Virus record (IMG/VR): IMGVR_UViG_3300025684_000016
Location: 1 to 64,000 of that record
DNA from: a virus
Strand: one strand, 5' to 3'
DNA length: 64,000 nucleotides
Shown here: positions 11,893-61,674 of the stretch, in pieces
Layout of the letters: every line of letters begins with the position of its first letter
Position numbering within the stretch: position 1 is the first letter of the stretch
The notes under the pieces: model-generated
What the model was told of the DNA's origin: nothing
The model's input: only the letters and a program-made list of their open reading frames with translations
Databases searched by the model: none
Made by a program: the position numbers and the translations under genes

Positions 11893-11939
11893 CTGTTTTT
11901 TTATTTAAAGTTTTAATTTTATTATAAATATCATCGTAA

Positions 11940-27834: not shown

Positions 27835-27848
27835 AACTTATAAATACA

Positions 27849-36953: not shown

Positions 36954-39254
36954 TTAGAAGTCTATTTTTACTGATATTACCTGTGTTCCTTTTCGTTTAA
37001 CAGGTGATGAAGTTTTTGCAGTAACTAACACGTCCTTATTTTGGTCCAATAGTACAACTTCTGTAACAAATTTCTCGGTTGGAAGACCTCTTTGTGTTGT
37101 TACATATGTTGGGTTTTGTGTATTAGTGAATTGAGTGTGTGGTAGGTTTACCAAGAACCTCATTTCTTCAATATCTGTCGATCTAACAAGTTTTATACTA
37201 CCAGGGAATGGTTGTTCGTCACCAAATTGTGGTTGTATTGTTGAACCCGTGTACCCCAAATAATCAGTATCAGTGGTAATATAACTTTCCAAATCAAATA
37301 AAGATCCATTTTCAATATCAGAACCCGTTATAACGAAAGAGAAGTCTCTTAAGTTGGTTGGGTTAATTAATGAATTGGCTACGTGGTTTGGGATTCTACT
37401 TGTAATATCAATTTCCGTCCATAAATTTGGATCAGGTAATAAATCGGTGTTGTTGGTAGTTTCTTGTATTAATACTTTCAATTTGTCAGCGATGAATCCT
37501 TTAGTTGCACCACTAAACGATGTTTGTAAGTGTTGAAATGATCCAACACCGTTTGGATGGTCTGTTGATCCTCCAAATTTTAATGCAATATTAGATGGGT
37601 ATACAACGTCACATGCACCATCAACTTCATTTATCTGTACTTTAGAAAAGTTGTTACATGGTAATCCATTTAATGATTTATCACTCGAGTATTCTAACAT
37701 ATAAGTAACCCAATATGTTTGTGATGTACTTCCTGAGAAACACGCATCACTTATAGGTGTGTCACTTGGTATGTGGTATGCTTTAGGTGTTGGTAATGTG
37801 TATCTTCGGTTTGATCTGTAGTCAAGTAATGCAACTAATTCTTGATCGTCAAATACTATAACTTTTTTATCTACAAAAACTTTACCTACTTTCTCCCCCG
37901 TCTCATCTATTAAGAATCTATATTTTATATAGTTAGTTCTGATATCACCAGGTGTTCCCGCAAATGTAGAATCTATATAATAATCCGTAGTGTCCATTTT
38001 AAATTCAGCACCTATCGTAGTACCTGTACTATTTTCATAGTAGATGAATGGTAAATAAACATTAAAGAAATTTACGTCTTCAACAACCTCATCATCAACT
38101 AAGACACCTTCAGTAGTTGAACTACCTATATAATCATCATATTTAAAAAATCTATCAGGATCTTGGAAAATATGTCCTAATTCAGTGTAGTGAATTATTG
38201 CAACACATTTTTGTTCTTCAGGTAAGACCTTTATTGGTTCATCAAAAGAATTAGAGTATGTTACCCCTGTGTTACTAACCTGTCCATCAGATATACCATA
38301 ACCGAGGTATTCCATTGTAGATATGTGTTTACTACTGGTATAACCAGATACATTCTCGTCAATACCGTCAACATCTGCCCCTATTGGTTTTTCTTGCCAC
38401 ACAACATTTAATGACCATGGATCGTGTTGTTCTCTTGGATCAACTTGATTTGATACACAGTATGGTGATACTTTAGGTTCTAATGGATGTTCTATATTAC
38501 ACTTGTTACATATAACCTGTGCAAACCCACCTAATGTTGTGAAATCAGGTACAATCCTATCTATTGTTATTGTTGTTTGACCTGTAATGACAGTGTCACA
38601 CGATGGTGTCGTTGTAGATCCCGTAACCACACTTATATTAAGTATTTTATAAATTAAACTTGTTGAGTTACCTGTTACGACTTGTTCTTCTGAAACGAAT
38701 TGGTTGTTATATACCACAGTAACGTATTCACACCCATTAAATCTTGAAAGATTATTTGTGTCAATATCAGTAACCGCACCATTATTACAATCTAAGTACG
38801 CTAACGTCTCAGTAAATTGTATTGTAGTTCCTGTAATAAAACTTGTGGACGTACCACTTAATGGTATTCGAACACTCGTACATTCCACAGTAGTTCCTGA
38901 ACATTCACTACTATCATAAGGTTTATATTCTGTAATAAAACCAGCAGGTCCCATTCCGTTTTTAATGGTTTCTGTTATAGAATCCATCACAGGTACACCA
39001 TATGTTGTTGTACCATTAGTATCTAATAAGTAAGGATACTTAACTTGTGAGTCTTTATCAAAAGGTGCCAATACATTTTGTTGTGGATTATCCCCTATAC
39101 CATCTAACGAATCAAATGGTGTTGTATAGTCAAATTCAGAATCTCCTACTTGGAAGAATTTTATTTGAAAATCTCCTTGTGCAATTGATTTCCTACCCTT
39201 TTGGGTTAATCTCGCTGAGAGGAATTCCGCATTGTTTTGACTTAAAAAACTCAT
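36954..39254 (-). CDS. Baseplate/tail-fibre attachment-like structural protein
   Basis: N-terminal ARLTQKGRK..FFQVGD and C-terminal FVTEVVLLDQNKDVLVTAK..VKIDF resemble tail-collar/fibre-anchor motifs; TATTTAT upstream. Confidence 0.55.
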   Translation of the reverse strand: MSFLSQNNAEFLSARLTQKGRKSIAQGDFQIKFFQVGDSEFDYTTPFDSLDGIGDNPQQNVLAPFDKDSQVKYPYLLDTNGTTTYGVPVMDSITETIKNGMGPAGFITEYKPYDSSECSGTTVECTSVRIPLSGTSTSFITGTTIQFTETLAYLDCNNGAVTDIDTNNLSRFNGCEYVTVVYNNQFVSEEQVVTGNSTSLIYKILNISVVTGSTTTPSCDTVITGQTTITIDRIVPDFTTLGGFAQVICNKCNIEHPLEPKVSPYCVSNQVDPREQHDPWSLNVVWQEKPIGADVDGIDENVSGYTSSKHISTMEYLGYGISDGQVSNTGVTYSNSFDEPIKVLPEEQKCVAIIHYTELGHIFQDPDRFFKYDDYIGSSTTEGVLVDDEVVEDVNFFNVYLPFIYYENSTGTTIGAEFKMDTTDYYIDSTFAGTPGDIRTNYIKYRFLIDETGEKVGKVFVDKKVIVFDDQELVALLDYRSNRRYTLPTPKAYHIPSDTPISDACFSGSTSQTYWVTYMLEYSSDKSLNGLPCNNFSKVQINEVDGACDVVYPSNIALKFGGSTDHPNGVGSFQHLQTSFSGATKGFIADKLKVLIQETTNNTDLLPDPNLWTEIDITSRIPNHVANSLINPTNLRDFSFVITGSDIENGSLFDLESYITTDTDYLGYTGSTIQPQFGDEQPFPGSIKLVRSTDIEEMRFLVNLPHTQFTNTQNPTYVTTQRGLPTEKFVTEVVLLDQNKDVLVTAKTSSPVKRKGTQVISVKIDF

Positions 39255-39326
39255 AGTTATAATATATACATTTTAATCTTATTTATAAATATCTAATTAT
39301 ATTATTTCTAATTAAATCCCACATTT

Positions 39327-40811
39327 TTAAGCTACATATGTCGTTATCTCATTTTGTTCTGCTCTAACAAATGACTCATTAAGTGACCATGCGAATGTAT
39401 AAGATACATTTTCACCATCAGTAGAATAATAAGATGGGTGTATTCCAACCGCAACAGTACGAGTACCGATAGGAGGTATTTCTATAACCCATTGGGATCC
39501 ACCATAAGCTGGATTACCACTTGATATTGTGCTTTGATAGTTAGCATTTTGAGTTCCTCCCTGAATCCCCACATATATTTGGTCCCCATCTTGAGTCACA
39601 TTTGAGTACACAATTTTCGCCATAGCGTCAAAAGACTGATTACTTCCACTATATGTTTTAGCCATCATCCTAACGTAAATTGTTTCATCTGAACCATTGT
39701 AAATACTATGAACCTTCCCACTCCCTTGTGGAATGTTGTATTCCCCAATAGGTCCTTGACCATCGTAAACGGGGAATGAGGAACCCTCTGAACCCGAAAC
39801 AAAACCTTTAATTATAATATTTTGGTTGGTTGGAGGATTTGCTTCAGGAGTTGGTTGTGGTGTCGCTTCAGGGGTTGGTTGTGGGGTTGCGTTTGGTGTT
39901 GCCACTGGTGTCGCATCAGGAGTTGGTTGTGGCGTTGCGTTTGATGTTGGTATTGGTGTTGCGTTTGGTGTCGCATCAGGAGTCGCGTTTGGTGTTGTGT
40001 TTGGAGTTGGTTGTGGGGTTGGTTGTGGAGGACATGGGTCAAAATCCTCAATAAAGTTACCATTAGGACAACCATTATATAGTTCTTCTTCAGTGGATAA
40101 TCCCATATCTTTTATTATTCTAACCCAACTAACATCAGTATGACATGAAGAACCCACACAATTTTGATTAGCTCCAGACCATATACATGCACAATCAAAC
40201 GAAAAGTCAATAAATCCATTTGGGGAGTTAGCTGCAATACTCTGAGCTTGTTGTGATGTTATTGATAACGCGTTATACCTATCACCTGAGCTAGCACCAG
40301 GATAATTAGGGTAAGTAGGTGGTCGATTTACATCGTCATATATTCCACCCGCATTATTCATATTAACCTGACCAATATTTACATTATTCGCCATAATGTC
40401 GAACTTCGCCCTATTACATCCATGACCACCACTACAAGGTGATCCATTTAAACCACTATTATTATATTCAACAACAAACGTTAAGGAATTAATACAACTT
40501 TCTAAAACAGTTTGAGTGGTTTGGGGTGTTGGTGCAGGATTAAAAAATTCAACGAAATCCGCACATATTTCACAATCAACACTCGGTGATTTTATTAGTA
40601 AAACTTGATCTAAACAACCCGTACTAACTAATTTTAAACCAAACTCTATTATACTATCATCCACAGTAAAGGTAACAGGACTTGTTGTAACTCCCGCATA
40701 AACTAAGTTTGTGGCATTACCTGTGGTTGTTCCACTATATATATCAACAGGGAAATCAGTCAACGAATGACTATTATCTAAATTTATATTTACCCTTATT
40801 AATTTACTCAT
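39327..40811 (-). CDS. Modular virion accessory protein with PT linker and Cys-rich domain
   Basis: Small N-domain, Cys-rich middle, (A)TP(N/D/Q)ATP repeats, C-terminal domain. Confidence 0.7.
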   Translation of the reverse strand: MSKLIRVNINLDNSHSLTDFPVDIYSGTTTGNATNLVYAGVTTSPVTFTVDDSIIEFGLKLVSTGCLDQVLLIKSPSVDCEICADFVEFFNPAPTPQTTQTVLESCINSLTFVVEYNNSGLNGSPCSGGHGCNRAKFDIMANNVNIGQVNMNNAGGIYDDVNRPPTYPNYPGASSGDRYNALSITSQQAQSIAANSPNGFIDFSFDCACIWSGANQNCVGSSCHTDVSWVRIIKDMGLSTEEELYNGCPNGNFIEDFDPCPPQPTPQPTPNTTPNATPDATPNATPIPTSNATPQPTPDATPVATPNATPQPTPEATPQPTPEANPPTNQNIIIKGFVSGSEGSSFPVYDGQGPIGEYNIPQGSGKVHSIYNGSDETIYVRMMAKTYSGSNQSFDAMAKIVYSNVTQDGDQIYVGIQGGTQNANYQSTISSGNPAYGGSQWVIEIPPIGTRTVAVGIHPSYYSTDGENVSYTFAWSLNESFVRAEQNEITTYVA

Positions 40812-40836
40812 ATTTTTTTATTTTATTTCTAATTAA

Positions 40837-42648
40837 TTAGACAGGTTCTAAACCTTCATCACGACCACCGCCACATTTATTTGTGGTTCCATAATTACCA
40901 TTTTTTTGGAAAAGTAATTTTTCACTACCTTCTGTTGATTCATCTGCGACCATATATGTACCATCAGACGAATATCTAAAGACTGTTGGTGTTCCAGACC
41001 ATATAGAATTAGGGTGTATTGTGTATGCACCACCACCACCATTTATAATCTCATTATCTGATAGTGCAAATGTTGATTTAACTATATTTTTCCCATCTGC
41101 ATTGGTGGTGAACCATGATGTGTTATAAGTTACATAAACTCTATTTTCTAAAATACCATCATTACCTTCATCACAATTCGCGTTGTTTGGTGCTGAAGTT
41201 GTGTTAGATAATAAAATGGCAGATATCTCTGTCGTCTCTGTTGTAGGACTTGGAGTTGGTTGTGGGGTTGGACTTGGTTCTTGTTCATATGTACAATTAC
41301 GATTTTCAGTACATGACCCTCCACTTGGTGGTCTTTCTACACCGGATGGGTCTATCACTGCCGCACCTCCACCAGACTGACCGAAATCAAACCATAGTGG
41401 TGTTGTTTGAGAACATACACCATATACCGATCCACTCACCCCTTGATATACTGCAAGAGTAGCCAAAAGATTTGAGAACGGTGTAAGTATTGCTGTTTCA
41501 CCACCTTGGAAGTAATCTAATCCCTGATTAGTTGTGTCGACGTTATTAGGAACAAATACAAAGTTACAGGTTAATGCACTAACCTCTGTTGTGGGACTTG
41601 GAGTTGGTGATGGGCTCGGAGAAGGAGATGGGCTTGGTGTCGGATTAGGTGATGGACAAATACCTCCAACACAATCTGAACCTATACTATAACTTAATTT
41701 AGCGTCCGACACCGTTATATTTTGACCACTACCACACACACTAAATGTTTCTTGAGTATAAGTCGTTCCTGTTTGAGGGACTCCCGAACAATCATCGTAA
41801 CCGTAATATCTTGCTCCGCTTGAGTTATGAGAGAACTCTATACAAACACAAGGTCCTTCAGTTGGTGTTGGTGTAGGAGTTGCAATGTTAATATCAACAT
41901 CAAAGTCACAATTTTCTGTAACTGTTGGTGTAGGTGATGGAGATGGTGTTGGACTACTTGAAGGTGTTGGACTTGGTGTTGGACTTGGTGTTGGAGTATT
42001 ATCACAAACACCATCAGTACATGTTCCGTAAACGCCGTAAGTTACTTTTTCAGCAACTGATATTATACTTTGTGCACATACGTGAAATGTTATTTCCTCC
42101 ATTGGTGGAGTGTCAGACGTTGCATTTACTGTCACACCACTACAATCAACATATGAGTAACTGAAATAACCCTGACGATTACTATTAATTTCGAAACATT
42201 GACACGCCACCTCATCCGTAGGTGTTGGAGTAGGGCTTGGTGATGGGGTTGGACTTGGTGATGGACTATATTCCACAAAATTAACCGTGAAATTACAATC
42301 AGTCGTTGGTGTTGCGGTTGGTGTTGATGTTGGGCTTGGTGTGGCAACAGGACTAAATGGTGGACAGTTTTCACAATCAATATTAATTAACTTAACTTGA
42401 AAACCACCTTGTCTTTTAGGTAATTCAGATGGTGGTGGTGTAACGTAAAAATCACAGTGTACCAAAAAGATATATAAAGGACCTTCATATGTACCAACAT
42501 CAAATGTGTGTGGTAAACTATGTGATCCAATTGATTGTGCACTTACAGGTATTATATATGGATCACCGTTGTAGGTTGTACCCGTATATATTGTGAATTC
42601 ATCACATACACCATTTTCATATAGATTATTTACCGTTATAAGACTCAT
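40837..42648 (-). CDS. Modular virion accessory protein with PS/PT linkers, CxCxE domains and an NCDFDVD motif
   Basis: Several PS/PT tracts separating small Cys-rich domains; one exact [15 protein letters not shown]. Confidence 0.75.
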   Translation of the reverse strand: MSLITVNNLYENGVCDEFTIYTGTTYNGDPYIIPVSAQSIGSHSLPHTFDVGTYEGPLYIFLVHCDFYVTPPPSELPKRQGGFQVKLINIDCENCPPFSPVATPSPTSTPTATPTTDCNFTVNFVEYSPSPSPTPSPSPTPTPTDEVACQCFEINSNRQGYFSYSYVDCSGVTVNATSDTPPMEEITFHVCAQSIISVAEKVTYGVYGTCTDGVCDNTPTPSPTPSPTPSSSPTPSPSPTPTVTENCDFDVDINIATPTPTPTEGPCVCIEFSHNSSGARYYGYDDCSGVPQTGTTYTQETFSVCGSGQNITVSDAKLSYSIGSDCVGGICPSPNPTPSPSPSPSPSPTPSPTTEVSALTCNFVFVPNNVDTTNQGLDYFQGGETAILTPFSNLLATLAVYQGVSGSVYGVCSQTTPLWFDFGQSGGGAAVIDPSGVERPPSGGSCTENRNCTYEQEPSPTPQPTPSPTTETTEISAILLSNTTSAPNNANCDEGNDGILENRVYVTYNTSWFTTNADGKNIVKSTFALSDNEIINGGGGAYTIHPNSIWSGTPTVFRYSSDGTYMVADESTEGSEKLLFQKNGNYGTTNKCGGGRDEGLEPV

Positions 42649-42711
42649 TTAATAATTTCTGTATTTCTATAAATACTTTGGAATCAAATTAACACAAAGA
42701 GAATAGTATAT

Positions 42712-42739
42712 AAAAAAACCCCCACCATGGAGGGTTTTT
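42712..42739 (-). terminator. Intrinsic terminator after 42766..43563
   Basis: Minus strand AAAAACCCTCCA-TGG-TGGGGGTTTTTTT. Confidence 0.75.
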
Positions 42740-42765
42740 CAGATATTATAATACTTGTCTTTTTA

Positions 42766-43563
42766 TTACTCACCACAATGTAAAAAGTCATCACAACCAG
42801 GAACGATAGGTATACGTGATATGTATCCATTTTCACTTCCAGGAGGTGCAGTAAATGTGGTTGATATTACAGTTGCACAATACGTCGCACCACCACATCC
42901 ACTATTACTGGTCCCCCTAAACTGTACAACATCACCTATAGAATATCCCGGATCGGACACGACAGTAAGGTTACCATTCTCACAATACACAATCTTAGGT
43001 ACATGATAGTCCTGTGAGTCGTTACATCTCTCAAGTCTATAGTAAGTCTCAAGTTCGGTTGTTGGACTTGGTGTCGCACTTGGTATTGGTGTAGGTGTGT
43101 AAGTTGGCATTTGAGTTACATTTGGTGTTGCACTTGGATTAGGTGTTGCATTAGGTGTTGCATTTGGTGTTGCACTTGGATTAGGTGTTGGTTGTGGTGT
43201 TGCACCATTTGTTGGTAGTGGTGTTGCATCAGGTGTTGGTTGAGGTGTTGCATCAGGAGTTGGTTGAGGTGTTGCACCATTTGTTGGTTGAGGTGTTGCA
43301 CTTAATGTTAAGGGATATTCCACAATATTTGTTGGACAATCTTTTATCATAGTTGCATTATTATTATAAAAAATAACACTTGTTGCACTATCAGGTACCG
43401 TTATTAGTACACCTCCCTGAACTTGAGCTAATGTTAAATTAGTTGCCTGATTACTTGTTCCATAGAGGAGTGCTTGGTTACCATTCGTTGATGACGTATG
43501 GTATATTGTATACGGACCATTGTTGGTTCCTGAAGTTAACGTTACTGTGAAATGTCTTGCCAT
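42766..43563 (-). CDS. Modular virion accessory protein (N-domain, ATPQP/ATPN linker, Cys-rich tip)
   Basis: N-terminus similar to that of 45461..51598; has its own TATTTAT and terminator. Confidence 0.75.
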   Translation of the reverse strand: MARHFTVTLTSGTNNGPYTIYHTSSTNGNQALLYGTSNQATNLTLAQVQGGVLITVPDSATSVIFYNNNATMIKDCPTNIVEYPLTLSATPQPTNGATPQPTPDATPQPTPDATPLPTNGATPQPTPNPSATPNATPNATPNPSATPNVTQMPTYTPTPIPSATPSPTTELETYYRLERCNDSQDYHVPKIVYCENGNLTVVSDPGYSIGDVVQFRGTSNSGCGGATYCATVISTTFTAPPGSENGYISRIPIVPGCDDFLHCGE

Positions 43564-43617
43564 TTTATTACTTTTATATATAAATACTTTATTCTTTCTT
43601 ATTATCTATTACCTTAA

Positions 43618-44754
43618 TTAACAACTTGGTATACTATAACCTAAATTATTAATCGCCGTAATTATAAGTCCCATATAATATTGTGGACTACTCCCTGGTG
43701 TAACACCATAGGTATTATGCACTACAGATTTATCAGATAACCCATACACACCACTATAGTTACCTAAACCACCCTCAACCGCTTCCAATAGATTTTTAAA
43801 GTATAGATACTGACCTGTGGGTTGAGTTTGAACTTGAAAAATCTCACCAATAAGGTAATTGGTTGGATTATTATCAATGTTATTTCTTAAAGATGTTATG
43901 TCAGTATTAAAAGTACTGGTTCTGTTAGTGGTGTTGTTCCATCCAGAAGTAGAACCACCATGATATATTGAAGCCCCTTCGTCTTGGAATGATAAGTTTA
44001 TGACTTTAGTAATTGATGATGTAGTACCAGTCGTTGCTAAACAAGCGTAACTTCTTTCCCCGAAATTCAATGATGACATATTTAAAACTCTTACCCTACT
44101 ATCATATAATGCCGAATCATTGTTGTAAAACGGTAATAAACAGTTTTTAAGAATGGTAGATGCCATAGTATTTAATGGGGCTTCAGTGGTACCCATAGAA
44201 CCTGAATCATCAAAGAATATATTAATTTCAGTCTTGTCGTCTATGACCTCACCTGTTGGTGATGGGGTTGGACTTGGTGTTGCGTTTGGTGTTGCGTTTG
44301 GTGTTGCGTTTGGTGTTGATGCCAACGTTGGTTGTGGGGTTGGGGTTGGACATATTAATTGAAGATCTACCCCAAATTCAATCCTATCGTAACAATCAAA
44401 TGCCTTACTATCATGAATGTATATGTTATGAATAACATATCTACTCCTTAAATCATTCTCGTGAACATCAATATCATTTACGTTATCCTCCAACTTTATC
44501 CAATACTCAGTATCAAATTCTAATTCAGATACGACATTTTCACATGTAGTTCCCGATCCTGGTGGTGGAACAGTTGGGTCATCGTTAGTCATACATATCG
44601 GATTTGACATATAGTCTCTAACATTAGATGATGGCCACGCACCATTAACCTCAGGACCTTCAATTTTCTTGAAGTACCCGTAGGGTGATGTTCCAATACT
44701 TAAGTTAAACTTGTTTGGAGAAACAATATCATATAAACGTACAACTAATCCCAT
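43618..44754 (-). CDS. Modular virion accessory protein with vWA-like (DxSxS) C-terminal domain
   Basis: EINIFFDDSGSM; C-terminal ~205 aa paralogous to the C-terminus of 51644..59620. Confidence 0.75.
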   Translation of the reverse strand: MGLVVRLYDIVSPNKFNLSIGTSPYGYFKKIEGPEVNGAWPSSNVRDYMSNPICMTNDDPTVPPPGSGTTCENVVSELEFDTEYWIKLEDNVNDIDVHENDLRSRYVIHNIYIHDSKAFDCYDRIEFGVDLQLICPTPTPQPTLASTPNATPNATPNATPSPTPSPTGEVIDDKTEINIFFDDSGSMGTTEAPLNTMASTILKNCLLPFYNNDSALYDSRVRVLNMSSLNFGERSYACLATTGTTSSITKVINLSFQDEGASIYHGGSTSGWNNTTNRTSTFNTDITSLRNNIDNNPTNYLIGEIFQVQTQPTGQYLYFKNLLEAVEGGLGNYSGVYGLSDKSVVHNTYGVTPGSSPQYYMGLIITAINNLGYSIPSC

Positions 44755-44793
44755 ATGTTATATAAATACCCAATAATATAGATTACTTTAAAT

Positions 44794-44819
44794 AAAAAAA
44801 ACCCATCGAAATGGGTTTT
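44794..44819 (-). terminator. Intrinsic terminator (UUCG loop) after 44848..45381
   Basis: Minus strand AAAACCCAT-TTCG-ATGGGTTTTTTTT. Confidence 0.85.
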
Positions 44820-44847
44820 AATTAAATATTTAATTTTAATGATTTAG

Positions 44848-45381
44848 TTATATTTCATTACAATTGTCCCCTTGACTAATAGGTACATGTGTTACCGCCT
44901 TCGGTGTAGTACCATCAAATATCCATACATTCGAATTCTGGAAAGTACCTTGTCCATCTACTCTGATTGTATCTGTTCCACTTGGTAAAAACCCTCCACC
45001 ACTTATAGTATTCCATGCGGCTTCACTAATTATAACATTTGCCGGTGCTTCACCATCATTTCCACACTTATTGAATCTGAGATTTGAAACAGGGTCGTCT
45101 CCACCACCTTCAGTTGGTGTTGGAGTTGGTGCCGGTGTATTATTTAAACCTGTCCAACTCACTGAGTTATCACAATCACCTGTAGAAGTTACTGTACCAC
45201 CCGTTATCGTATCGGCCACTTGATATGTAACACCAGCCGTTAACTGTGCTTTAGTCACTGAAGTAGCAATTGTTGTATCCGAAGGACTCCCTCCCGAATG
45301 TTTCCCGATAATTGTGAAATTATCCGCTTGTGTTGTACCTGTGTACAATGCGTTTAATGTAAATGTTACTGAATATGCCAT
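44848..45381 (-). CDS. Small modular virion accessory protein
   Basis: N-domain ..ATSVTKAQLTAGV..VAD..STGDC, short TPAPTPTP linker, C-domain; own TATTTAT and terminator. Confidence 0.7.
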   Translation of the reverse strand: MAYSVTFTLNALYTGTTQADNFTIIGKHSGGSPSDTTIATSVTKAQLTAGVTYQVADTITGGTVTSTGDCDNSVSWTGLNNTPAPTPTPTEGGGDDPVSNLRFNKCGNDGEAPANVIISEAAWNTISGGGFLPSGTDTIRVDGQGTFQNSNVWIFDGTTPKAVTHVPISQGDNCNEI

Positions 45382-45460
45382 GTTTTCTTTTTTTTATCTG
45401 TTTATTATAAATATCGTGTTTTTTTAAAATATCACGATACTCGTATTTATTTTTGTATTA

Positions 45461-48400: not shown

Positions 48401-51400
48401 TGTTGATGTAAACGATACTTGAGTTGGTTCTGTTATTGTTACTGAGAATTCTCTTTCACAGAAACTCCCATCCTGTATTGTTATCGTGTATGTACCCGCA
48501 GATAAATTACTTATTGTACGAGTAGTCCCATCATCATCTTCAAATTCTCCATCATCAAATTTTATCTTATACGGACCACCATTACCACCACCAATTTGAG
48601 TTATTCTAATTTCACCCGAACTGAGTCCATTACATAATGTATTTGTTTTGGATAGTGATAAAGTTATTGCCGACTTAGTTAGTACTACCGTTCTTGAACT
48701 TGTACACCCATTTTCGTCAGTTGCAACTAAAGTGTAATTACGTTCATCCAACCCTGTTTGGGAAAGATCCGTAATTGCCACACCATTTAACGTATATGTT
48801 TTGGTTCCTGTTCCCCCACCAACGGTGAAAGTAATTGTACCATCAGAATCACCATCACATGTTGGATCTGTATGAGTATCGGATATGAATATTGCTGATG
48901 GTTTTGTAATTGTTTTACTTATAGTACCTATTTCACCATTACTATCTTTTATGTAAATTGTGTATGTCCCTGAATCGAGATTTGAAAATGTCGTTGATGT
49001 TTGGTAATTAGTACCGTTAATTGAATATGTATATGGTGAATCACCTCCCGTAGTTGAGGTAACCTCAATACTACCATCCCTTAAGTTGTTACATGTAATA
49101 TTGGTTACATTCGCAGTACCTGATACAGATATATTTGTTATTGATATGGTTATTTTCTTTTCATACCATAACCCTCCTTGATCTGTCGATCTTACTCTTA
49201 TTGTGTATGAATTCTTGGTTTCATAATCAAAAACTTCTTTGCTTTTTAAGGTTGTTCCGTCTATATAGAATGAACCATTGTTGGTATCTCCAAGACCACT
49301 TACTAATGTATATGTAAATGTATTTCCTGCGTCAGGGTCTGTTGTGGATAATGTTCCTACAGTGGACCCTGTTACCACATTCTCATCAATAGATGAATTA
49401 GATAATGATATGTTTGTTGGAGTTTCATTAACATTAGTTACATTAATAGTAAACGATTCTTCTCTATATAAACCACCTTGGTCTGTTGATCTTACTCTAA
49501 CTGAATAAGTGTTCTTAACTTCATAGTTGAATACTTCACTACTTTGAATATTATTACCACTTATGTTAAATGAACTATTATTAGTGTCACCCACACCACT
49601 TACTAATGTATATGTAAATGTATTTCCTGCGTCAGGGTCCGTGGTTGAGAATTGACCAACCGTAGTACCCGTAGAACTATTTTCAGGAATATTATTATCT
49701 GATAAAATTATATCTGTAGGTGCTTCGTTTGCGTTGGTGATATTAATTGTTACTGATCTTTCGTGTGTTAAACCACCTGAATCTGTTGCTTTGACTCTTA
49801 TTGTATACGAGTTTTTAACTTCGTAGTTAAACACCTCGTTAGATGTCAGAGTACCATTACTATTCAAACTAAACGAATCGTTGTTGGTATCTCCAAGACC
49901 ACTTACCAATTCAAAAGTATGTGTATCGCCCGCATCAACATCGGTGGCGGTGAATGTAGTCACTGTTGTTCCTGTCGATTGATTTTCTTGAAATGACACT
50001 GTTGATGGTGTTATGTTAGAAGGGGTTTCGTTAAGATCTGTAATCAAAATCGTAAATATACCTATGTAGGTTAATCCCCCCGAATCAGTAGTTTTTACTC
50101 TTATAGAATAACTGTTCTTACCTTCATAGTTATAAACTTCTTTACTTTTTAGAACACCACCACTTGTTAATGTAAATGAATCATTATTAGTATCTCCTAA
50201 ACCACTAACAAGTTCATAAGAATGACTATCTCCCGAATCAACATCCGTACTACTGAAAGTACCTATTGTTGTTCCTGTAGATTGATTTTCCGCAATACTA
50301 TTACTTGATAAGGATAAATTTGTTGGTGATTCATTAACGTCAAGTACTGAAATTGTAAATGTATCCGTATAAGTGTTATTACCACTATCCGTAACCGTCA
50401 CTTCAATACTATAAGAGTTTTTAACCTCATAATTAAAAACTATTGCATTTTTGAGTACACCCGTACTTGATAAGGCGAACGCCGAATTATTATTACCACT
50501 ACCCGTTAGTGCGTATGTGAATGTTTCGTTACTATCAACATCTAACCCTGAAAAAATACCAATTGTTGTCCCCGTTGATGTGTTTTCACTTTGTGAATTA
50601 TTACTTAAGGTTAAACCGTATGGTGTTTCATTAACATCAACTATGTCTACCGTAAATTCTCTTGTATTACTTAAACCACCATCATCAGTTGCTTTAACAT
50701 ATAATGTGTATAAACTTTTTACCTCGTGATTAAAAACTTGTGCATTAGATAAAACCTCATTAGTTAACGTAAATGAATTATTGTCGGGGTAATTTGCACT
50801 ATCTGTAAATTCCCACGTAATGGTTCCACCCTCAGTATCGTCAGCAACTAAACTACCAATAGTAGTTCCTGTTGCAGTATTCTCTGTTTGACTAAAATTT
50901 GGTAATCTAATCCTTGGTGATGTATTTGTTGTTACGTCTACATCAAAGTCACAATTAATTGTTGGTGACGGAGATGGACTCGGTGTAGGGGTTGGTAATG
51001 CCGTTGGTCTTGGAGTCGCGCTAAACGTCGGAGACGGAGATGGACTCGGTGATGGACTCGGTGACGGAGACGGACTTGGGCTCGGTGATGGGGATGGACT
51101 TGGGCTTGGTGTAGGTGATGGACTCGGTGTAGGAGTTGGGGTCGCAATATCAATGTCAACATCGAAATCACAATTCGGAGTTGGAGTTGGACTTGGGCTC
51201 GGGCTTGGTGACGGAGACGGACTCGGTGACGGAGATGGACTCGGTGACGGAGACGGTGTAGGTGTAGGGTTAGGGGTTGAACTCGGTGATGGTGACGGTG
51301 TAGGTGATGCCGTTGGATTTGGTGTTGCACTCGGTGTTGCCGTTGGTAACGGAGTTGGTAATAGAATGGTGTCCTCAATTAGACACGAGTCGTTATATAA

Positions 51401-51598
51401 TAATACCGACACCGCACTATCAGGTATCTCAACCTTTACACCTGGTGACGTAATTAAATCATTATATGTAACACCAGTTGCTGGTAATGTGGTACTAACT
51501 CTTGTGGCAATATTTGACGGACCCACCAAATCATAGTAGATTGTGTAATCACTATGTGATGTCCCTGATGTAATTAATATGTTAAATATTCTTGCCAT
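45461..51598 (-). CDS. Giant adhesin-like virion protein: N-domain, PS/PT linker, 6 cadherin-like domains, ~13 SprB-like repeats, Cys-rich tip
   Basis: ENxxTG..DxD..(F/Y)(N/D)(Y/H)E..(D/N)xNE cadherin pattern x6 at ~100-aa period; xxxC.G..DG.I..GG..Y..L..G.Y...(K)D..GC repeats; no signal peptide. Confidence 0.85.
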
Positions 51599-51643
51599 TA
51601 TTAAAATATATACTTTTTATATTGTTTTATGTACTCATTATTC

Positions 51644-54600
51644 CTAACAACTTGGAATTGTATAACCTAAATTATTCATTGCGTTTACTATTAGATCCAT
51701 ATAATATTGTGGTGTACTTCCTGCAATCGTATCTTGAACACAACTAACTTCAGTTTTATCACTTAATCCCGCAGTTCCCGAATAATAACCCGTTCCACTA
51801 AACAACGCATTCATAAATGCTTGATATTGTGGGTATGCATCGTTTCCACCACTTAAAGTGTCCACTTGGAATATTATTCCTCTATGTGACGTTGAGCTGG
51901 TTGCGTTGGTCAAATTAGTTCTTAAGAGTGTAATATCACTATTACCCACTGTACTACCATTTGTCCAACCACTAACCGTTGGTGATTCTGCTTCGTATGA
52001 GTTACTCTCATCTGCGAATGCTAAATTCACCACATTCCTTGACGGATCTGATGGTTGAGTTGCAATCCAACTAATCGCCCTTTCATTACTAATACTTGTT
52101 ATTGTTACTCTTGAATTATATAAGTTAACATCATTATCATAGAATGGTAATAAACAATTCTGTAAAAGAGTACTCCTCATTGTATTAAGTGGACTTAGTG
52201 TTGAGTTCATTGAACCTGAACTATCAAAGAATATATTTATCTCCGTATCTGTACTAACCACTATCTCTTCCTGAATAACCTCAGTCGCTTGAACCTCAAA
52301 AGTACAATCACATAATATGTGTACATATTCTAAATCAAATAACGTCTGATTCCATTCGGCAACAACAAACACCGCATTATTATTAGAGTCAATAAATCTA
52401 ATTCCTGTGTCGTATAAAATATTTGTACCATGAGGTGTTAAATTACCTAATGAGTGATCCACACTACTAACTTGGGTACCGACAGGTGTTACGTGTTGTC
52501 CAACACAACTTGTGTTAGATCCACCAGAATAACCACGTACATAAACTAAACATGATGTGGAATCATACCACCATTCTTCACCGTCAGTATCAACACCAGG
52601 TGTCTCAGCACAATACCCACCTAAATCATATATTCCAGCTCCACTAACTCCTGTTCCTGTGGACACGAATAAACCACTAAAGATTTCAGTTCCACAATTT
52701 GGTGGACAACCTACCGATGTAGGACTTGGACTCGGACTCGGTGATGGACTCGGAGAAGGAGATGGACTTGGTGTAGGACTCGGACTCGGAGATGGACTTG
52801 GTGTAGGACTCGCAGTTGGGTTTGGTGTAGCACTTGGGCTTGGTGTTGGTGTAGGAGTTGCAATATCTATGTCAACATCAAAATCACAATTCGGAGTTGC
52901 CGAAGGTGATGGAGACGGTGATGGTGATGGTGTAGGACTTGCAGTCACACTTGGTGTTGGTGATGGACTTGGGCTTGGTGATGGTGTTGGTGATGGTGAC
53001 GGACTTGGTGTAGGACTCGCAGTTGCATCAGGTGTCACACTTGGTGATGGTGATGGACTTGCAGTTGGATTTGGTGTCGAACTTGGACTCGGCGTAGGAG
53101 TTGGTGTAGCAATATCTATATCAACATCGAAATCACAATTCGGAGTTGCCGATGGTGATGGGGTTGGAGTTGAACTCGCGGTCGTACTTGGTGATGGTGA
53201 CGGACTTGGTGTAGGACTCGCAGTTGTACTTGGACTTGGTGACGGTGTAGGTGATGGACTTGGCGTAGGAGTTGGGGTAGCAATATCTATATCAACATCG
53301 AAATCACAATTAACCGTTGGTGACGGTGAAGGAGATGGTGATGGTGACGGACTTGGTGATGGGCTCGGAGATGGGCTTGGCGTCGGACTCGCAGTCACAC
53401 TTGGTGATGGAGATGGACTCGGACTTGGTGATGGTGTAGGACTCGCACTCGGCATAGGAGTTGGAGTTGCAATGTTTATATCAACATCGAAATCACAATT
53501 TATTGTTGGTGTAGGAGATGTCGACGGACTCGGTGATGGTGTAGGAAATTGTGTAGCATCAGGTGTTGCCGGTGGTGTTGCAGTTGGGTCAGGTGTTGGT
53601 GCTGGTGTTGCCGAAGGTGATGGGGTTGCAGTTGGGGTAGCAATATCTATATCTACGTCAAAGTCACAATTCGGGGTTACCGACGGACTTGGGCTTGGTG
53701 ATGGTGATGGTGTAGGACTCGCAGTTGTACTCGGACTCGGTGATGGAGATGGAGATGGGGTTGGACTTGCAGTTGTACTCGGACTTGGTGATGGTGTAGG
53801 ACTCGCACTCGGCATAGGAGTTGGAGTTGCAATGTTTATATCAACATCGAAATCACAATTCGGGGTTGCTGATGGTGATGGACTTGGTGATGGACTTGGC
53901 GTCGGACTTGCCGTTACACTCGGACTCGGTGATGGAGAAGGAGATGGTGTAGGACTTGGGCTTGGTGTAGGACTACTTGAAGGTGCAGGTGTTGGTGTCG
54001 CAATGTTTATATCAACATCAAAGTCACAATTAGCCGTAGCCGATGGACTTGGGCTTGGTGATGGTGATGGTGATGGTGTAGGACTCGGGCTTGGTGTAGG
54101 AGTTGGGGTAGCAATATCTATATCAACATCGAAATCACAATTAACCGTTGGTGTAGGACTTGCCGTTACACTTGGACTTGGTGATGGAGATGGGCTCGGA
54201 CTTGGGCTCGGTGATGGTGTCGGACTACTTGAAGGTGCGGGTGTTGGAGTCGCAATGTTTATATCAACATCAAAGTCACAATTTTCTGTAACTGTTGGTG
54301 TAGGTGATGGAGATGGTGTTGGTGTAGGAGTTGCAATATCTATGTCAACATCAAAATCACAATTAGCGGTAACTGTTGGTGTAGGTGATGCAGACGGTGA
54401 AGGAGTTGGAGTTGCAATGTTAATATCAACATCGAAATCACAATTTTCTGTAACTGTTGGTGTAGGACTCGGGCTTGGCGTAGGAGTTGGAGTTGCAATA
54501 TCAACGTCCACGTCGAAATCACAATTTTCTGTAACTGTTGGAGTTGGAGATGGGCTTGGCGTAGGAGTTGGTGTAGCAATATCAACGTCCACGTCGAAAT

Positions 54601-57600
54601 CACAATTTATCGTTGGTGTAGGACTTGCAGTCACACTTGGTGAAGGGGTCGGAGTCGCAATGTTTATATCAACATCAAAGTCACAATTTTCTGTAACTGT
54701 TGGAGTTGGAGATGGTGTTGGAGTCGCAGTTGGTCCCGCAATATCTATATCCACGTCGAAATCACAGTTCGGTATATCTATATCCACGTCGAAATCACAG
54801 TTCGGTGTTGCCGAAGGTGATGGTGACGGTGTAGGACTTGCAGTCACACTTGGTGAAGGACTTGGTGATGGTGTCGGACTACTTGAAGGTGATGGTGATG
54901 GTGTCGGACTTGCAGTCACACTTGGTGAAGGACTTGGTGATGGGCTCGGTGTAGGAGATGGGGTTGGACTTGCGGTCACACTTGGTGTTGGTGCCGGTGT
55001 TGCAGTTGGTGGTTGTGTTGGTCCTGGTGTGGGTGTAGGTATGTCATTACAATCCTCAGTATAAATTGGTCGATTTAAATCTTCAATTGAAGGTATAACA
55101 GCACAATCTAATTGGTCTTGGAAATATTGTTGAGCACTTAATGATAAATCCTCAAATGTTTGTTGTGGATAGTGAACTAAAATACAGTCGTCATCATCTC
55201 CGTTATATAAAATAACCTGTGGATATGCCACTTCAGACACTTGTGTCATTGTTAAGTGATAAAATAATTCACGTTCACAATATTCTAAATCTAAACTCGT
55301 AACTTCAATTGGGAAACCAAATTCATTAATAAGATAATCACCTTTTATGAAGTAATCCTTATCATATGTACAACATGGGTCAACACCTTGTTCTAAAGGT
55401 CTAACAAATAAATCTTCAGGGTATTTTTCTGTAAATTCCCACAAACCACTCACTTTAGTTAATACCCTCACCTTTGTATTTGGTAGGATTCTAAAACGAT
55501 CATTAATGACGTTCATTTTAGTAGTCCCCAAACAATCAATATTATCTACAGTAACTTCAGTGTAGTTCTGACCAAATGAGAATCCATTTAAAACTGAGTC
55601 TCTAAAATCTTCAGAACCAAACGGACATGACAAATATTCACCCGACAACAATCTATCACCATCATTCACTTCTTGAGCCTTGATTCGTACTATATTATTA
55701 CCATTAATTAATGTCTGTATATCTTCCCATGTTGTGGTTGATGATATAACCACCGCATTGTCTACAATTTTTAAAACTGTACTATCTTGTTTTATTCCAT
55801 AATCAAATGTTGGTCGATACTGTACCTTAGGATGTATAGTATATCCAAGGTAATTATCACAATATGTTATACCACTTAGAGTCTCTATTGCCACATTACC
55901 ATTTTCTGGTAATTCACCAGGTAAAAAAGATTCTACAGAATATTCAACATAATGACTTTTTGGTTCTGTAACCGTATCATTAATTGGATCCCATTCTAAT
56001 TTTTGTTGTAACCCCTCAATTCTTACTTTTTGATCACAGTTTGCTGCGTCGGTGATTGATATATCAATGACATCATGTTCTCTTACATTTTTTACTATAA
56101 ATGTACAACCCGACACATAATCAACCACATAAGATGGTGGTTCTGAAATACCCTCATTGTAATCACCAAGACAATTAATGAATATGTTAACCGGCCAATC
56201 AGTATTGTATGGTGGACATGTATCACACACATCACCATTATCAACAGTATCTTCATTTCCAAATGTTATACCTGATACCTCAAAATAAACGTCTGACACT
56301 AACACACATTCGTCAGGATCTTCAGGTAATGTATACATTGTACCATCACCATATACCTTAACTTTAGGGTCACATTTTGTTGTTCCTGTTAGGTAAACCG
56401 AATCAAAATAGAAATCAAACGTACTCGGATCTAAACAATCAAAATCAACAGGTGTATATGTCACATAAGGTGATCCCGTTGCACTATATAATTGTAAATT
56501 ATAAACGTAGGGTACAATTGCAATTTTTTGAATACCATCCGTATCTGTAAAAATTCTATAATCTAATAAAGGTGCGTATTCATAATCATATGTTTCAGTC
56601 ACTTTCGCAACACCACTAACATCATCAGTTGTATCACTTAGTTCGTTTGTGAATGCCGTAGATATTGATGTATTACCACTTACTTTAAATTCTTCCCATC
56701 CAGCATGGTTGTTAATTAACCCACCATGACCAGTGTATTTTGTTTTCTTATAATATGTCTTATTGATTTGATTATCAATAATATCTTTTATTTCGTCAAT
56801 CCAAAGACATTCTAAAATCTCCAATTGTGGTTCTAAATAACATTTAAAATCACATAATAGTGGTAAGTGTACCGTTTTATCAAATTGGGTACCTCCACTT
56901 GTCACTGATTCTTGTGTTAATGTTGTTATCCCTGAAAATTCAAGAAACTCAACAGTTTGAGCACAATTATCATTATCAAAGTATACATTTTCAATGTCAG
57001 TACATTCAGATGTTATTGTGTATGGATCGAATAACCCCGCATGATTATGATTAACAAGTATTTCATCACATGTTGAACCAGTTACTGTTTGTGTCTCACC
57101 ACTAATGACAATATCAGTATCACCAGTAAATGTCAACCCATTAAAGTCAATATGAAGTGTGTAAGTCACACCACTTACAACTGTAAGTCCCCTGAAATTA
57201 TCATGGTCACCTAAAATTGTTTCTAAATCTTCTTCAATTACATCCTCAAACTTAGGAAAAAGGTTTTGTGTAAACTCATTTGGTAAACATGGTTTCTCAT
57301 ATTCAAACTTAGATCTTCCAATTCTACCGTTTTCAATGATATTACCACCAGTCCATAGTGTTGTGGCAGGAACAAATTGTTCAATCACTTGTGTCCAATA
57401 AGGACTCATTCGGTTTATAAATTCACTAACAGTAGGTAAACTATATGGATTGGACACCTTTGATAGGTAACCCTCATATATGTCTTCTAACTGTATATAA
57501 TTCTTTTTATATCGAATTATGTGTGTGTTACGTATTTGTTCGTTTAAAACGTGTTCAGTGTACTCAGCAAACGTGAATCCTGTCTGTGGTTCTAACGTTG

Positions 57601-59620
57601 CACGACCAAACGACACTTTTAATTCTCTACTTTGTCTGTATATGTCATTATCAACACCTTGTGACGATGAAAGATAGATTTGAATATTTTTTCTGTTAAG
57701 GATTCTTGAATCTTCATCTTCTAAAACTTCTGTCTTATCATTGTCAACCGTGTTATGTAATTCATAACCGTAATCTAAACCCGAAAACTGTCTATATAGG
57801 TCAAAATAGTCCTCACCATAGGTGAAATCTTTGTTTTTAGTCTTTATAACTTTAGGGTTCAAAGTCAAGTTTGAATTCTCAGTATCTAACTCAGTTGATG
57901 ATCTGTGGTCTAATGTTATATCATACCATCCAGCACCTTTTTGGAAGAATGTGTCTTGTTTTTCACTTTCTATACCCTTTATATCCCCATATTGTGATTT
58001 ACCCGACACAAGACTTACAGGGTATTCACCCTCACTATAAAGTGTGGAACCTGTGGTAGTTACACTATTGTAACTAAAACCTGTTGTTGATAATGATCCC
58101 ACTTTAAAGGTTTTATCACCTTGAATAAGGTCATAAACATCACTATCAATGTCACTCGTTGTCTTTTTTACTTGATCGTAACGGTAAACATATTCGTTAA
58201 TATTAATCAACGGTTCAGGTGCACCAATAAATCTTAAAAAGAATTCAATTGCTTTCCTTGTACCTTTTGATTTGTAAATGTGTGAAAGGTTGATGACAAG
58301 TCTTCTGTAAAACTCAGTCTCTGCTTCCACCATATTCATTCCAACACCAACACCATCGTACTGACTGTCAACTCTTGTGTAAAGTGAATCCTGTAGATTC
58401 TTTTCGTCAAATAGGTTTAAAGTGTCTAAACCAAGTGTGTTGGATAAGTTTTTTAAAAGTACGTCAGGTAGGTTATTAATACGATCATAACTCACATTTC
58501 TCATGTAAGCGATATTATCAATAAACTTCTTAACCTGATCAAAACTATGACCAAGTAACTGAGTTGCCGAGTCAAATCTTCTATCCTCAGTATCAAATTC
58601 GTATAATGATGCGGTCGTTAAAAATCTTGAAACTACATTCGATTTGTAATTATCAATACGTTCACCGAGTATACTTAACTCTTCAACATAATTTATGTAT
58701 GCACTTCCCGATATCTTTAAATTCCATTTATCCCTATATAGTGGCCACGAAATCTCATTAGTTTTTAGTTCTGTTTTTGAACCATCGAAACTATCTTCAG
58801 GTGCTCTGAACTTTGCGGTGTATTTTATTTTAGATTCACGATTTAATAAAACCGATTCTAAGTCATCTAACCCTTCAAAAAATTCTTCAACAACACTATT
58901 GTTCGGTCTTATTAAAAAACTATCGTCATATGTTGATGCCCCACCAAATGGAGACCCTTTTACCGTTAGACTTACTAACCCACTTAAATTAACCTCAGTA
59001 TAACTTATAACCTGATATGAAATCGAATTTACTTCTAATTCATATCTCTTAAAAGAATCGTAAAAATTCTTAATAGTGTTCGTTGTCTCAGGTAATGTAT
59101 TACTCTTTGGTTTTTCAAGAATAACATCTAACGGATTGAATATTTTACTATTTTCAATCTGAAATGAAGTTACATTGGTTTTCTTATTATATGTAGAATT
59201 TAACGCGGTAAATAACGTAGATGCCGTTGGGGTTTCTTTATCAATATAAATTCCAGCTGGAAACTTACCAATGATTCTTGATACGGATACCTGTAATCTT
59301 TGTTTTAGTGAACCAAATAAAGATTTACCACCATCTTCATTAGATTTTCTAAAGGTTACCTTATCCTTTCTTCTTTTAGTTGTAATTGTAGAGACACCAC
59401 TTTCAATTGGTTCCTCTTCTTTAATGTCCTCAAATGTGAGGTATTCAGAAAATGGTTTAGATTGGAATGATTTTTTATCCCTTTGGGGAATACTTTTATC
59501 CAATGCAAAGTTCGCAGAGGTCAGCTGACTTGTACCATCGGTAATTTGATTACCGACCAAGTTGTCATTAAAGGTTTCCCTCCCACTCGCCGCTTGACTT
59601 GGAACTTTTCTTTTCGCCAT
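51644..59620 (-). CDS. Baseplate wedge-like protein with mucin-like stalk and vWA-like tip
   Basis: [32 protein letters not shown] (P2 gpI/T4 gp7-like KGT motif); ~775-aa PS/PT region with 16 NCDFDVD motifs; C-terminal FFDSSGSM domain. Confidence 0.75.
52717..55040 (-). repeat. Coding low-complexity Pro/Ser/Thr repeat with 16 interspersed NCDFDVD(I/V)(D/N)I units
   Basis: 16 copies counted in the protein and again as STSKSQ in the antisense frame. Confidence 0.95.
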
Positions 59621-60534: not shown

Positions 60535-60559
60535 ATTCTTTTAATTAATAAATATAATT

Positions 60560-61672: not shown

Positions 61673-61674
61673 AA

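Follow-up and report, generated by a model that had tools for sequence, protein, structure and literature searches.

Here we describe a module of genes on the minus strand of a 64,000-nucleotide stretch of viral DNA (hereafter the window), positions 1 to 64,000 of the IMG/VR virus record IMGVR_UViG_3300025684_000016. The module, at positions 36954–59620, comprises the gene of a giant protein of 2658 amino acids (aa), six cassette genes that each join a small N-terminal domain (N-domain) to a proline/threonine-rich (PT) linker and a different tip, and the gene of a conserved 766-aa protein. Its organization is genuine and not a chance pattern; it is conserved and demonstrably modular. The window covers the opening 64 kb of a 74.8-kb record rated 22% complete, so the whole phage genome is probably near 300 kb. 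Our working model of the source is an uncultured marine, jumbo myovirus-like phage, and we infer that its host probably belongs to the Bacteroidota.

The genes at issue are all encoded on the minus strand. Their order of transcription starts with a DnaB-like helicase and both subunits of ribonucleotide reductase; next come a gp25-like (PF04965, 3.1e-9) and a gp6/J-like wedge protein (PF04865; phrog_219, 3e-24), which are encoded upstream of the giant on the same strand. Five unassigned open reading frames (ORFs; 1271, 587, 268, 370 and 304 aa) separate the gp6-like gene from the giant, which is followed by the cassettes of 2045, 177, 378, 265, 603 and 494 aa and then by the 766-aa protein. The genes of RuvC-like, primase and exonuclease proteins come after this 766-aa end of the module. 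From this gene order, the locus sits at the distal end of the baseplate operon. The module had been proposed earlier, from the bare sequence, to encode a stalked baseplate scaffold with an array of swappable adhesins (the sequence-only reading), and the ORF lengths given there for the cassettes (2045, 177, 378, 265, 603 and 494 aa) and for the 766-aa protein hold.

The giant protein and its stalk

The giant (51644–59620, minus strand) is composed of a conserved N-terminal core, a variable middle, a PT stalk, a Cys-rich domain and a vWA-like tip. Among 1.8 billion proteins, its N-terminal 1200 aa find 1028 cluster representatives at E ≤ 1e-3. In the more distant matches listed, the matched core covers approximately residues 10–485 while the protein lengths range from 650 to 3037 aa, a pattern that suggests a constant anchor and a distal end free to vary. 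The giant is present in 26 IMG/VR loci, and its orthologs in six related contigs measure 2064–2720 aa.

The stalk (residues 1528–2304; 52709–55039, minus strand) consists of 30% Pro, 21% Ser and 17% Thr and is encoded by DNA containing the repeat families D2, D3, D5 and D7. It had been described as a stretch of about 775 aa with 16 Cys-bearing peptides; we counted 777 aa and 16 exact copies of the peptide NCDFDVD(I/V)(D/N)I. These copies hold all 16 Cys of the stalk, one in each, and are spaced 11–83 aa apart, with the first two adjacent in a hairpin-like arrangement (spacing 11). An 835-aa, Gly/Val/Asp-rich ORF on the plus strand (52557–55064) is an antisense reading of the stalk codon repeat and was rejected as a gene. 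Between stalk and tip lies the Cys-rich globular domain (52271–52708, minus strand), which has no match in Pfam and carries a peptide-like CDCTFEV strand at its end. The giants of three related loci (L016, L017 and L022) stop at this domain and have no vWA tip.

The 2045-aa and 603-aa proteins contain peptides of the NCDFDVD type as well, the latter adding the variant DCNFTVNFVE. At the DNA level, 62 nucleotides coding for peptide and linker are identical between the 603-aa gene (41891–41952) and the giant gene (54261–54322). Together with 48% identity between two tips (see below), these copies bear out the earlier statement that domains, peptides and exact DNA are shared between genes of the module.

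Among the giant orthologs, the stalk contains 8–22 peptides whose wording varies (NCDFG.., NCDFE.. or [ND]CDFD[IV]D[IV]D[VL]). The wording shifts from clade to clade: the stalks of more distant relatives have PCNFTIEYTALISTPTP or NCDFVIDTVAVIATPTP in place of NCDFDVD, and other clades include PCNFTIEYTALIS and NCDFVIDTVAVIA. Within one genome, the same variant is found in the giant and in an N1 gene. The skeleton is constant and consists of one Cys, a near-invariant Phe and alternating hydrophobic positions, followed by T-P-T. All but six of the 257 stalk peptides (251) have the Phe, and the Cys is invariant by the search pattern itself. A hydrophobic face (C, F, V, I, I) alternates with an acidic one (D, D, D, D). 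Stalk peptides were recognizable in 34 of 81 loci and in 2 of the 150 best family representatives; such repeats often break assemblies. The reading that anchors exist without peptides was rejected, as the sequences of distant relatives show variant peptides. Two proteins of the related contig G001 depart from the stalk arrangement: one of 156 aa carries a tandem row of three or four peptides with no PT spacers between them, and one of 194 aa has at least two.

Six cassettes with three families of N-domains

ORF translations confirmed that all six downstream genes are built as N-domain, PT linker and tip. Each protein has its own small N-domain, as the sequence-only reading had it, but these domains belong to several families rather than to one. 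Profile–profile alignment with hhalign identified N1 (2045-aa and 265-aa proteins) and N2 (177-aa protein) as homologous (97.7%) and N4 (603-aa protein) and N5 (494-aa protein) as possibly related (48%), while N3 (378-aa protein) stands apart from the others.

All cassettes are encoded on the minus strand. The 2045-aa cassette (45461–51598) starts with an N1 domain (N1 hidden Markov model (HMM), 4e-30) and continues with PT linkers containing one or more NCDFDVD peptides, six cadherin domains, at least ten SprB repeats and a C-terminal Cys domain. A second, internal N1-like domain lies between its cadherin and SprB parts (residues 797–848; 49055–49210; E 2.2e-11). In the 177-aa cassette (44848–45381), an N2 domain is joined by a short PT linker to an 86-aa tip. 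The 378-aa cassette (43618–44754) combines an N3 domain, a PT linker and a vWA-like tip; its 194-aa ortholog in G001 lacks the tip and has strand peptides instead. The 265-aa cassette (42766–43563) carries a 95-aa Cys-rich tip at the end of a long PT linker that follows its N1 domain. The 603-aa cassette (40837–42648) is composed of N4, the strand peptide DCNFTVNFVE, two CxC domains, an NCDF-type peptide and two further domains. In the 494-aa cassette (39327–40811), N5 ends in the strand VDCEICADFVEFF and is followed by a middle domain, a PT linker and a C-terminal domain; this protein matches phrog_15511, a family whose function is not known (6.8e-4). The C-x-x-x strand that ends N5 has a similar counterpart at the end of N3.

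The N-domain HMMs found nothing significant in the giant, the 766-aa protein or other baseplate proteins, apart from a weak N4/N5 likeness in the 370-aa protein. The latter (60560–61672) is encoded two genes upstream of the giant, with the 304-aa gene in between; its C-terminal part is weakly N4/N5-like (E 0.0025–0.007), and it also has a weak PKD match. Judged by eye, the proteins have no hydrophobic, signal-like stretch at their N-termini, consistent with the earlier statement that signal peptides are absent. ORFs consisting only of an N-domain (95–138 aa) occur in relatives, which suggests that the anchors serve a structural function by themselves.

The AlphaFold model of residues 1–140 of the 603-aa protein features a seven-strand beta-sandwich, to which the peptide DCNFTVNFVE, located 17 linker residues beyond the N4 sandwich, adds a further, last strand (118–124). 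The model is a single chain with the pairing in cis, built on a 19-sequence alignment, and has a predicted local distance difference test (pLDDT) score of 69.8 overall and of approximately 57–70 in the peptide. Its best fold match is 9c7v_B (Z 8.0, root-mean-square deviation (rmsd) 3.2, 90 aligned), and it also resembles transthyretin-like 2h0e_A (Z 7.0) and CnaB2 (8bdw_A; Z 6.5, rmsd 3.8, 88 aligned). The best transthyretin-, prealbumin- and CnaB-like matches span residues 1–129 of the model and therefore include the peptide strand. A total of 112 chains match at Z ≥ 5, and Z scores of 6–8 are in the range of common beta-sandwich resemblance; a search of BFVD with the model returned nothing at E ≤ 0.001. 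The N4 ORFs of L054, L077 and L078 (95–96 aa) end short of the last strand, and the stalk genes upstream in L077 and L078 contain 8–10 and 2–4 peptides, respectively. N4 may thus be the first concrete candidate partner of the strand peptide, an assignment based on the model that we make with low confidence. Across 19 phages, N8, G23, T25, F61, H64, D66 and Q80-G81-G82 are invariant in N4 (residues 1–98; H-C-D-x-H and Q-G-G motifs), which suggests a metal site or a fixed interface.

Tips and the vWA assignment

The 2045-aa protein matches Cadherin (PF00028; 1.8e-51, 173 bits) in six stretches and SprB (PF13573; 2.1e-65, 216.5 bits) in ten, and both assignments are solid. In contrast to these, Pfam searches with nine tip and middle domains gave only sub-threshold matches to End_beta_barrel (E 0.0066) and Cerato-platanin (E 0.05), and the tip of the 177-aa cassette had no Pfam match.

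The last ~205 aa of the giant (vWA-like tip; 51647–52270, minus strand; DSSGSM motif) share 48% identity with the tip, or C-terminal half, of the 378-aa protein. A MIDAS-type motif, FFDSSGSM or FFDDSGSM, recurs in these tips, and its D, G, S and M are invariant across eight aligned tips. One of these, the orthologous N3-cassette tip of L035, is a canonical VWA domain (PF00092, 6e-11). Language-model neighbors of the vWA-like tip are mostly VWA domains (scores 0.79–0.82), which we treat as a lead only. Searches of PDB sequences with the vWA-like tips (phmmer and profile) gave no match. The vWA reading is thus partly supported: the invariant DxSGSM, the alignment to L035 and the weak language-model neighbors speak for it, but Pfam misses the tips of the window itself.

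Conservation of the module and exchange of tips

The order of giant, N-domain cassettes and 766-like protein is kept in six related contigs (G001, G002 and G005–G008), including a 335-kb genome that is rated complete. HMMs of the five N-domain types match ORFs of 95–1872 aa upstream of most of the 766-aa homologs that were fetched. The window, G001 and G002 each encode N1 twice and N2, N3, N4 and N5 in addition, with different orders and different tips. For example, the 95-aa Cys-rich tip is found on N1 in the window and on N5 in both G001 and G002, the latter having it on N2 as well. The vWA-like tip is present on N3 and on the giant in the window, on the giant only in G001 and on N3 only in G002.

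Over all loci, we collected 131 unique N-domain proteins, 99 of which have PT linkers. Their tips form 90 clusters, and 12 of the 27 clusters with two or more members occur on at least two anchor families. Pairs of close relatives locate the breakpoints. The N4 proteins of L036 and L038 share 93% identity over residues 1–127 and are unrelated beyond. Those of L038 and L040 share 99% identity at both ends, and L040 has ~205 extra residues (a non-PT domain of ~225 aa) inside the PT linker, at a place where L038 has an NCDFDVD-type peptide. Head turnover is seen even where the flanks of two phages share 99% identity. Sea-water contigs of 2017 and 2024 runs cover the array and show in-frame indels of 3–18 nucleotides in linker regions; the joints seen in metagenome contigs aligned on the array are mostly repeat-derived. 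Relative to the window, the 2024 sea-water indels at 39586, 41963, 42221, 43138 and 43187 amount to +3, −12, −18, −12 and +6 nucleotides, most of them in PT-linker DNA. In the cassette array of L031 (G001, a 183-kb relative), a 148-aa ORF without relation to the cassettes, having neither N-domain nor PT linker, is inserted at 11408–11854.

Taken together, the sequence comparisons show that cassette tips are swappable, with breakpoints inside the linkers. Diversification by exchange at PT linkers, as envisaged in the sequence-only reading, is borne out by the cross-family tip clusters, the L036/L038/L040 breakpoints and the 62-nucleotide identity. Invariance of the locus among relatives had been named beforehand as an observation that would refute the proposal; we found that order, tips and linker lengths all vary, which speaks clearly in its favor.

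The phrog_15511 match noted above aside, the giant, the cassettes and the 766-aa protein have no counterpart among the cultured phages of INPHARED or the PHROG families. Specifically, searches of 50,697 phage records (INPHARED) with the giant N-terminus and the 766-aa protein (tblastn) and with positions 56001–64000 (blastn) returned no match, and PHROGs searched at E ≤ 1 with the giant and the 1271-, 587-, 268-, 370-, 304- and 766-aa proteins gave nothing meaningful. Among the proteins searched, the gp6-like protein alone finds distant isolates, the nearest being Flavobacterium phage immuto (26% identity) and Microcystis phage Mel-JY01 (25%). In the literature we found nothing relevant on phage appendages with PT linkers or vWA domains. 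The earlier remark that the architecture is not recognizable from characterized phages agrees with these searches.

Is the giant a wedge protein?

The sequence-only reading had called the giant wedge-like because of a KGT motif. This motif lies in a region of residues ~433–495 (58136–58324, minus strand), a candidate for a wedge core of the gp7 or P2 gpI type with a weak match to Tail_P2_I. Tail_P2_I (PF09684) is the sole Pfam family that touches the giant, and the 74.8-kb record contains no other match to it; at 11.6–11.9 bits (E 0.009), the score is below the cut-off of 20.6. Against a profile of 14 P2 gpI relatives, hhalign aligned 36 columns (R..I..KGT..AI..G) at E 0.099 and a probability of 0.6%, placing the motif on P2 gpI residues 68–104; against the single P2 gpI sequence, the probability was 0.1%. 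Searches of PDB sequences with the giant N-terminus (phmmer and profile, from the single sequence and from an alignment) gave no match.

The AlphaFold model of giant residues 1–520 has a pLDDT of 80.8. Foldseek found nothing in the PDB at E ≤ 0.001 with this model, its top rows being Hsp90 noise. For the helical part (residues 326–479), VIA-align returned the Algoriphagus contractile injection system (7aeb_A; Z 4.8, rmsd 3.8, 110 aligned), pyocin R2 (6u5b_0; Z 4.5, rmsd 2.4, 62 aligned, 23% identity) and cyanophage A-1(L) (8kea_c; Z 4.4, rmsd 3.1, 111 aligned), all at Z scores of 4.4–4.8 that are within the noise range. The hints for a wedge thus agree with one another, yet all of them are under the noise thresholds. 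We lean very slightly towards the giant possibly being a wedge protein.

The closing protein, expression signals and surrounding genes

The 766-aa protein (36954–39254, minus strand) closes the module downstream of the cassettes in every contig examined. It has 150 relatives in IMG/VR (37–75% identity), no match in Pfam, PHROGs, PDB or INPHARED, and only unnamed viral clusters as matches in the ESM Atlas. The motif [ST]-G-x-T occurs ten times in this protein, compared with 1.2 expected from shuffled sequences (~8.5-fold enriched), and 13 times in giant residues 1–1527 (55040–59620), compared with 1.4 expected (~9-fold). It is absent from the RuvC, primase, exonuclease and SbcC proteins.

Promoter-like motifs of the form RTATTTATA are located on the minus strand upstream of the 177-aa (ATATTTATA, 45406–45414), 378-aa (GTATTTATA, 44761–44769), 265-aa (GTATTTATA, 43579–43587), 603-aa (GTATTTATA, 42668–42676) and 766-aa (ATATTTATA, 39284–39292) genes. 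This matches the earlier observation that four of the six cassettes (177, 378, 265 and 603 aa) have their own TATTTAT. The window has nine copies, a total that is not above chance (5.7 expected), and every one of them is on the coding strand. The further copies lie at 11923–11931, 22064–22072, 23357–23365 and 27839–27847; those at 11923 (in the fiber region), 22064 and 27839 are just upstream of ATG codons, for example that of a 664-aa gene. RTATTTATA is thereby a candidate for a late promoter element in this group of phages. A scan of the window for sigma-70 promoters gave a chance-level result (70 found, 71 expected). Terminator-like hairpins with a T-run follow the 177-aa gene (44798–44819, minus strand) and the 265-aa gene (42719–42733, minus strand), in agreement with the earlier statement that two of the cassettes have a terminator of their own.

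A classical fiber of 3018 aa with a Peptidase_S74 intramolecular-chaperone end (1.2e-16) is encoded apart from the module, at 685–9741, in line with the earlier description of the locus as separate from the trimeric fibers. This fiber has a short SLT_beta match (PF02258; 36 bits; residues 1082–1107) that covers just 26 residues and probably reflects a small repeat of the sugar-binding type, not a toxin. Between the fiber and the replication genes, positions 17455–18363 encode a D12-class N6-adenine DNA methyltransferase (PF02086, 1.6e-18). No tRNA was found in a scan of the 64-kb window.

A model for the module and its alternatives

We propose that this distal part of the baseplate operon is an attachment module that evolves fast and encodes a flexible, polyvalent brush; we hold this to be the best explanation and somewhat favored overall. 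The conserved first ~485 residues of the giant would fix it in the baseplate, possibly via a wedge core of the gp7/gpI type, and from there it would extend a long, proline-stiffened PT stalk that presents the Cys-rich domain and a vWA-type, metal-dependent binding head. Each of the six cassette genes would provide a small, conserved beta-sandwich anchor (N1/N2, N3 or N4/N5), presumably with its own site on the particle, bearing a PT spacer and one or more exchangeable heads: cadherin and SprB, vWA-like, or small Cys-rich domains. Such a brush could make the first, reversible contact with the surface of the host or with particles, beside the classical trimeric fiber. The repetitive linker DNA would serve as the crossover site at which heads are gained, lost and swapped.

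Several points weigh against this proposal. The virion location of the proteins is putative, as are their binding function and anchoring sites. The wedge identity of the giant falls short of every threshold used, and the gp7 equivalent could instead be the 1271-aa gene that immediately follows the gp6-like one. As most tips have no recognizable family, the label 'adhesin' derives from the cadherin, SprB and vWA assignments, and the two vWA-like tips of the window have no match to Pfam VWA at E ≤ 5. Some RNA-library contigs are 100% identical to parts of the 766-, 603-, 265- and 177-aa genes, although they may be carried-over DNA. Finally, an attachment brush by itself leaves the role of the 16 stalk peptides unexplained.

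Two alternatives address these peptides. They might pair with one another, either inside one chain or among several giant copies and the cassettes that bear peptides, into small beta-sheets, through disulfides and with Ca2+ or Mg2+ on the acidic face, and thereby bundle stalks into a fiber or a bottle-brush of PT loops. The alternation of hydrophobic and acidic faces, the single Cys per peptide with none elsewhere in the stalk, and the occurrence of same-worded peptides in the giant and the cassettes of one genome all fit such self-association. Against it stand relatives whose PT stalks show no recognizable peptides, given the counts of 34 of 81 loci and 2 of 150 best representatives that do, although such repeats often break assemblies; we regard self-association as possible but doubtful. 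Alternatively, the peptides could supply the missing last beta-strand of anchors such as N4 and N5, perhaps locked by a disulfide, so that cassettes would hang on the stalk, a sharper form of the scaffoldin-like arrangement in the sequence-only reading; the docking peptide would have the consensus x-[ND]-C-[DNE]-F-x-[VI]-x-[VLI]-x-[VI]-[VIA]-T-P-T. The N4 model takes the peptide as a strand and its fold matches include that strand; the N4-only ORFs stop before it, and L077 and L078 carry stalk peptides at the same loci. N5 and N3 end in similar strands, the Phe is nearly invariant beside a Cys fixed by the search pattern, and each giant offers 8–22 copies. However, the peptide is modeled at a low pLDDT from few sequences, pairing in cis and not in trans; N1, N2 and N3 possess terminal strands of their own; six anchors face 16 peptides, so the stoichiometry is not obvious; and no protein of the locus matches a cohesin or dockerin family in Pfam. 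Moreover, cassettes carry peptides too (the 2045-aa and 603-aa proteins and the 156-aa and 194-aa proteins of G001, A156 and A194), which homotypic association would explain equally well. Because the first two stalk copies are adjacent and G001 has peptides in tandem, self-pairing fits at least as well as docking to N4. We therefore judge docking to be rather improbable, and give the same low standing to its extension, a docking code in which trans strand complementation would load up to 16 interchangeable cassettes on one chain.

The remaining alternatives concern the purpose of the brush and its presence on the particle. Ig-like Hoc has been proposed to mediate adherence in the 'bacteriophage adherence to mucus' model, and the brush might similarly tether the phage to marine particles, algal surfaces, mucus or host exopolymer while the trimeric fibers recognize the host. 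The generic adhesion folds of the heads (cadherin, SprB and vWA, not trimeric spikes), the long, flexible linkers and the separate classical fiber with its Peptidase_S74 end are compatible with such decoration. But the genes are in the baseplate operon and not among head genes, and near-identical phages differ in their heads, as host-range determinants typically do, which makes this role seem unlikely to us. It is still far less likely that the proteins are non-virion products, synthesized late and either set free at lysis or retained in the cell, for example as decoys or as aggregation or exclusion factors, whose genes would lie beside the baseplate genes by coincidence. The absence of visible signal peptides and the promoter-like motifs and terminators of several genes would suit such products. 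Yet their place between the baseplate genes and the 766-aa protein is kept in six of the six related contigs examined, the giant N-terminus and the 766-aa protein both show ~9-fold enrichment of [ST]GxT, and RTATTTATA is shared with a fiber-region gene (11923–11931). Furthermore, Cys-rich heads that lack a signal peptide would reach no oxidizing compartment before lysis.

Relation to known systems

The attachment module is conserved in a large, wholly uncultured clade of jumbo phages, with the giant family forming about a thousand clusters at 50% identity, and it looks like the main host-range toolbox of this clade. Its appendage design is unlike trimeric fibers or spikes in that monomer-sized anchors and disordered PT tethers carry small, disulfide-rich or cadherin, SprB or vWA heads, and in that low-complexity linker DNA doubles as a recombination substrate.

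Set beside wedge proteins of the Tail_P2_I type, the giant has a weakly matching helical region with an aligned KGT motif, and its gene lies in one operon with gp25-like and gp6-like genes. It differs from T4 gp7 and P2 gpI in being 15 times longer than gpI and in lying five genes from the gp6-like gene; its stalk and head are found on no known wedge protein. By analogy, the module also resembles a cellulosome scaffoldin, a long protein with many short modules and Pro/Thr linkers beside small-domain proteins with varied functional parts. Here, however, the repeat unit is a strand of 10–15 aa instead of a 150-aa cohesin, and no cohesin or dockerin family was found. Strand complementation is known from the donor-strand exchange of chaperone–usher pili and from split CnaB2 (SpyTag/SpyCatcher). 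N4 is analogous to CnaB- and pilin-type complementation in that its model is a transthyretin/CnaB-like sandwich whose last strand is a detached peptide, while no isopeptide triad is evident in N4, unlike in CnaB. If docking were true, it would be an assembly principle based on strand complementation that is not known for any virion, and the peptides as docking sites would offer a natural, genetically compact kit for coupling peptides to domains.

The closest parallels are the branched sets of multiple receptor-binding proteins, such as the tailspikes TSP1–4 of Ackermannviridae phage CBA120, those of the Klebsiella phages PhiK64-1 and RaK2, and gp63.1/gp66 of G7C. As conserved anchors with variable distal binders are known from such modular, branched proteins, the term 'new system' used in the sequence-only reading is too strong. 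In both cases, adjacent genes at the end of a baseplate or fiber module combine a conserved N-terminal anchor with an exchangeable distal binder, and the number and identity of the heads vary between close relatives. We found no match in Pfam, PHROG, PDB or INPHARED to known tailspike anchors or trimeric beta-helix heads. The module described here differs from the branched sets in its anchors, which are small beta-sandwiches of three families; in its connectors, which are disordered PT and proline/serine-rich linkers in place of trimeric coiled or beta-helical shafts; and in its heads, which are Cys-rich, cadherin/SprB and vWA-like domains where the known sets carry trimeric depolymerase spikes.

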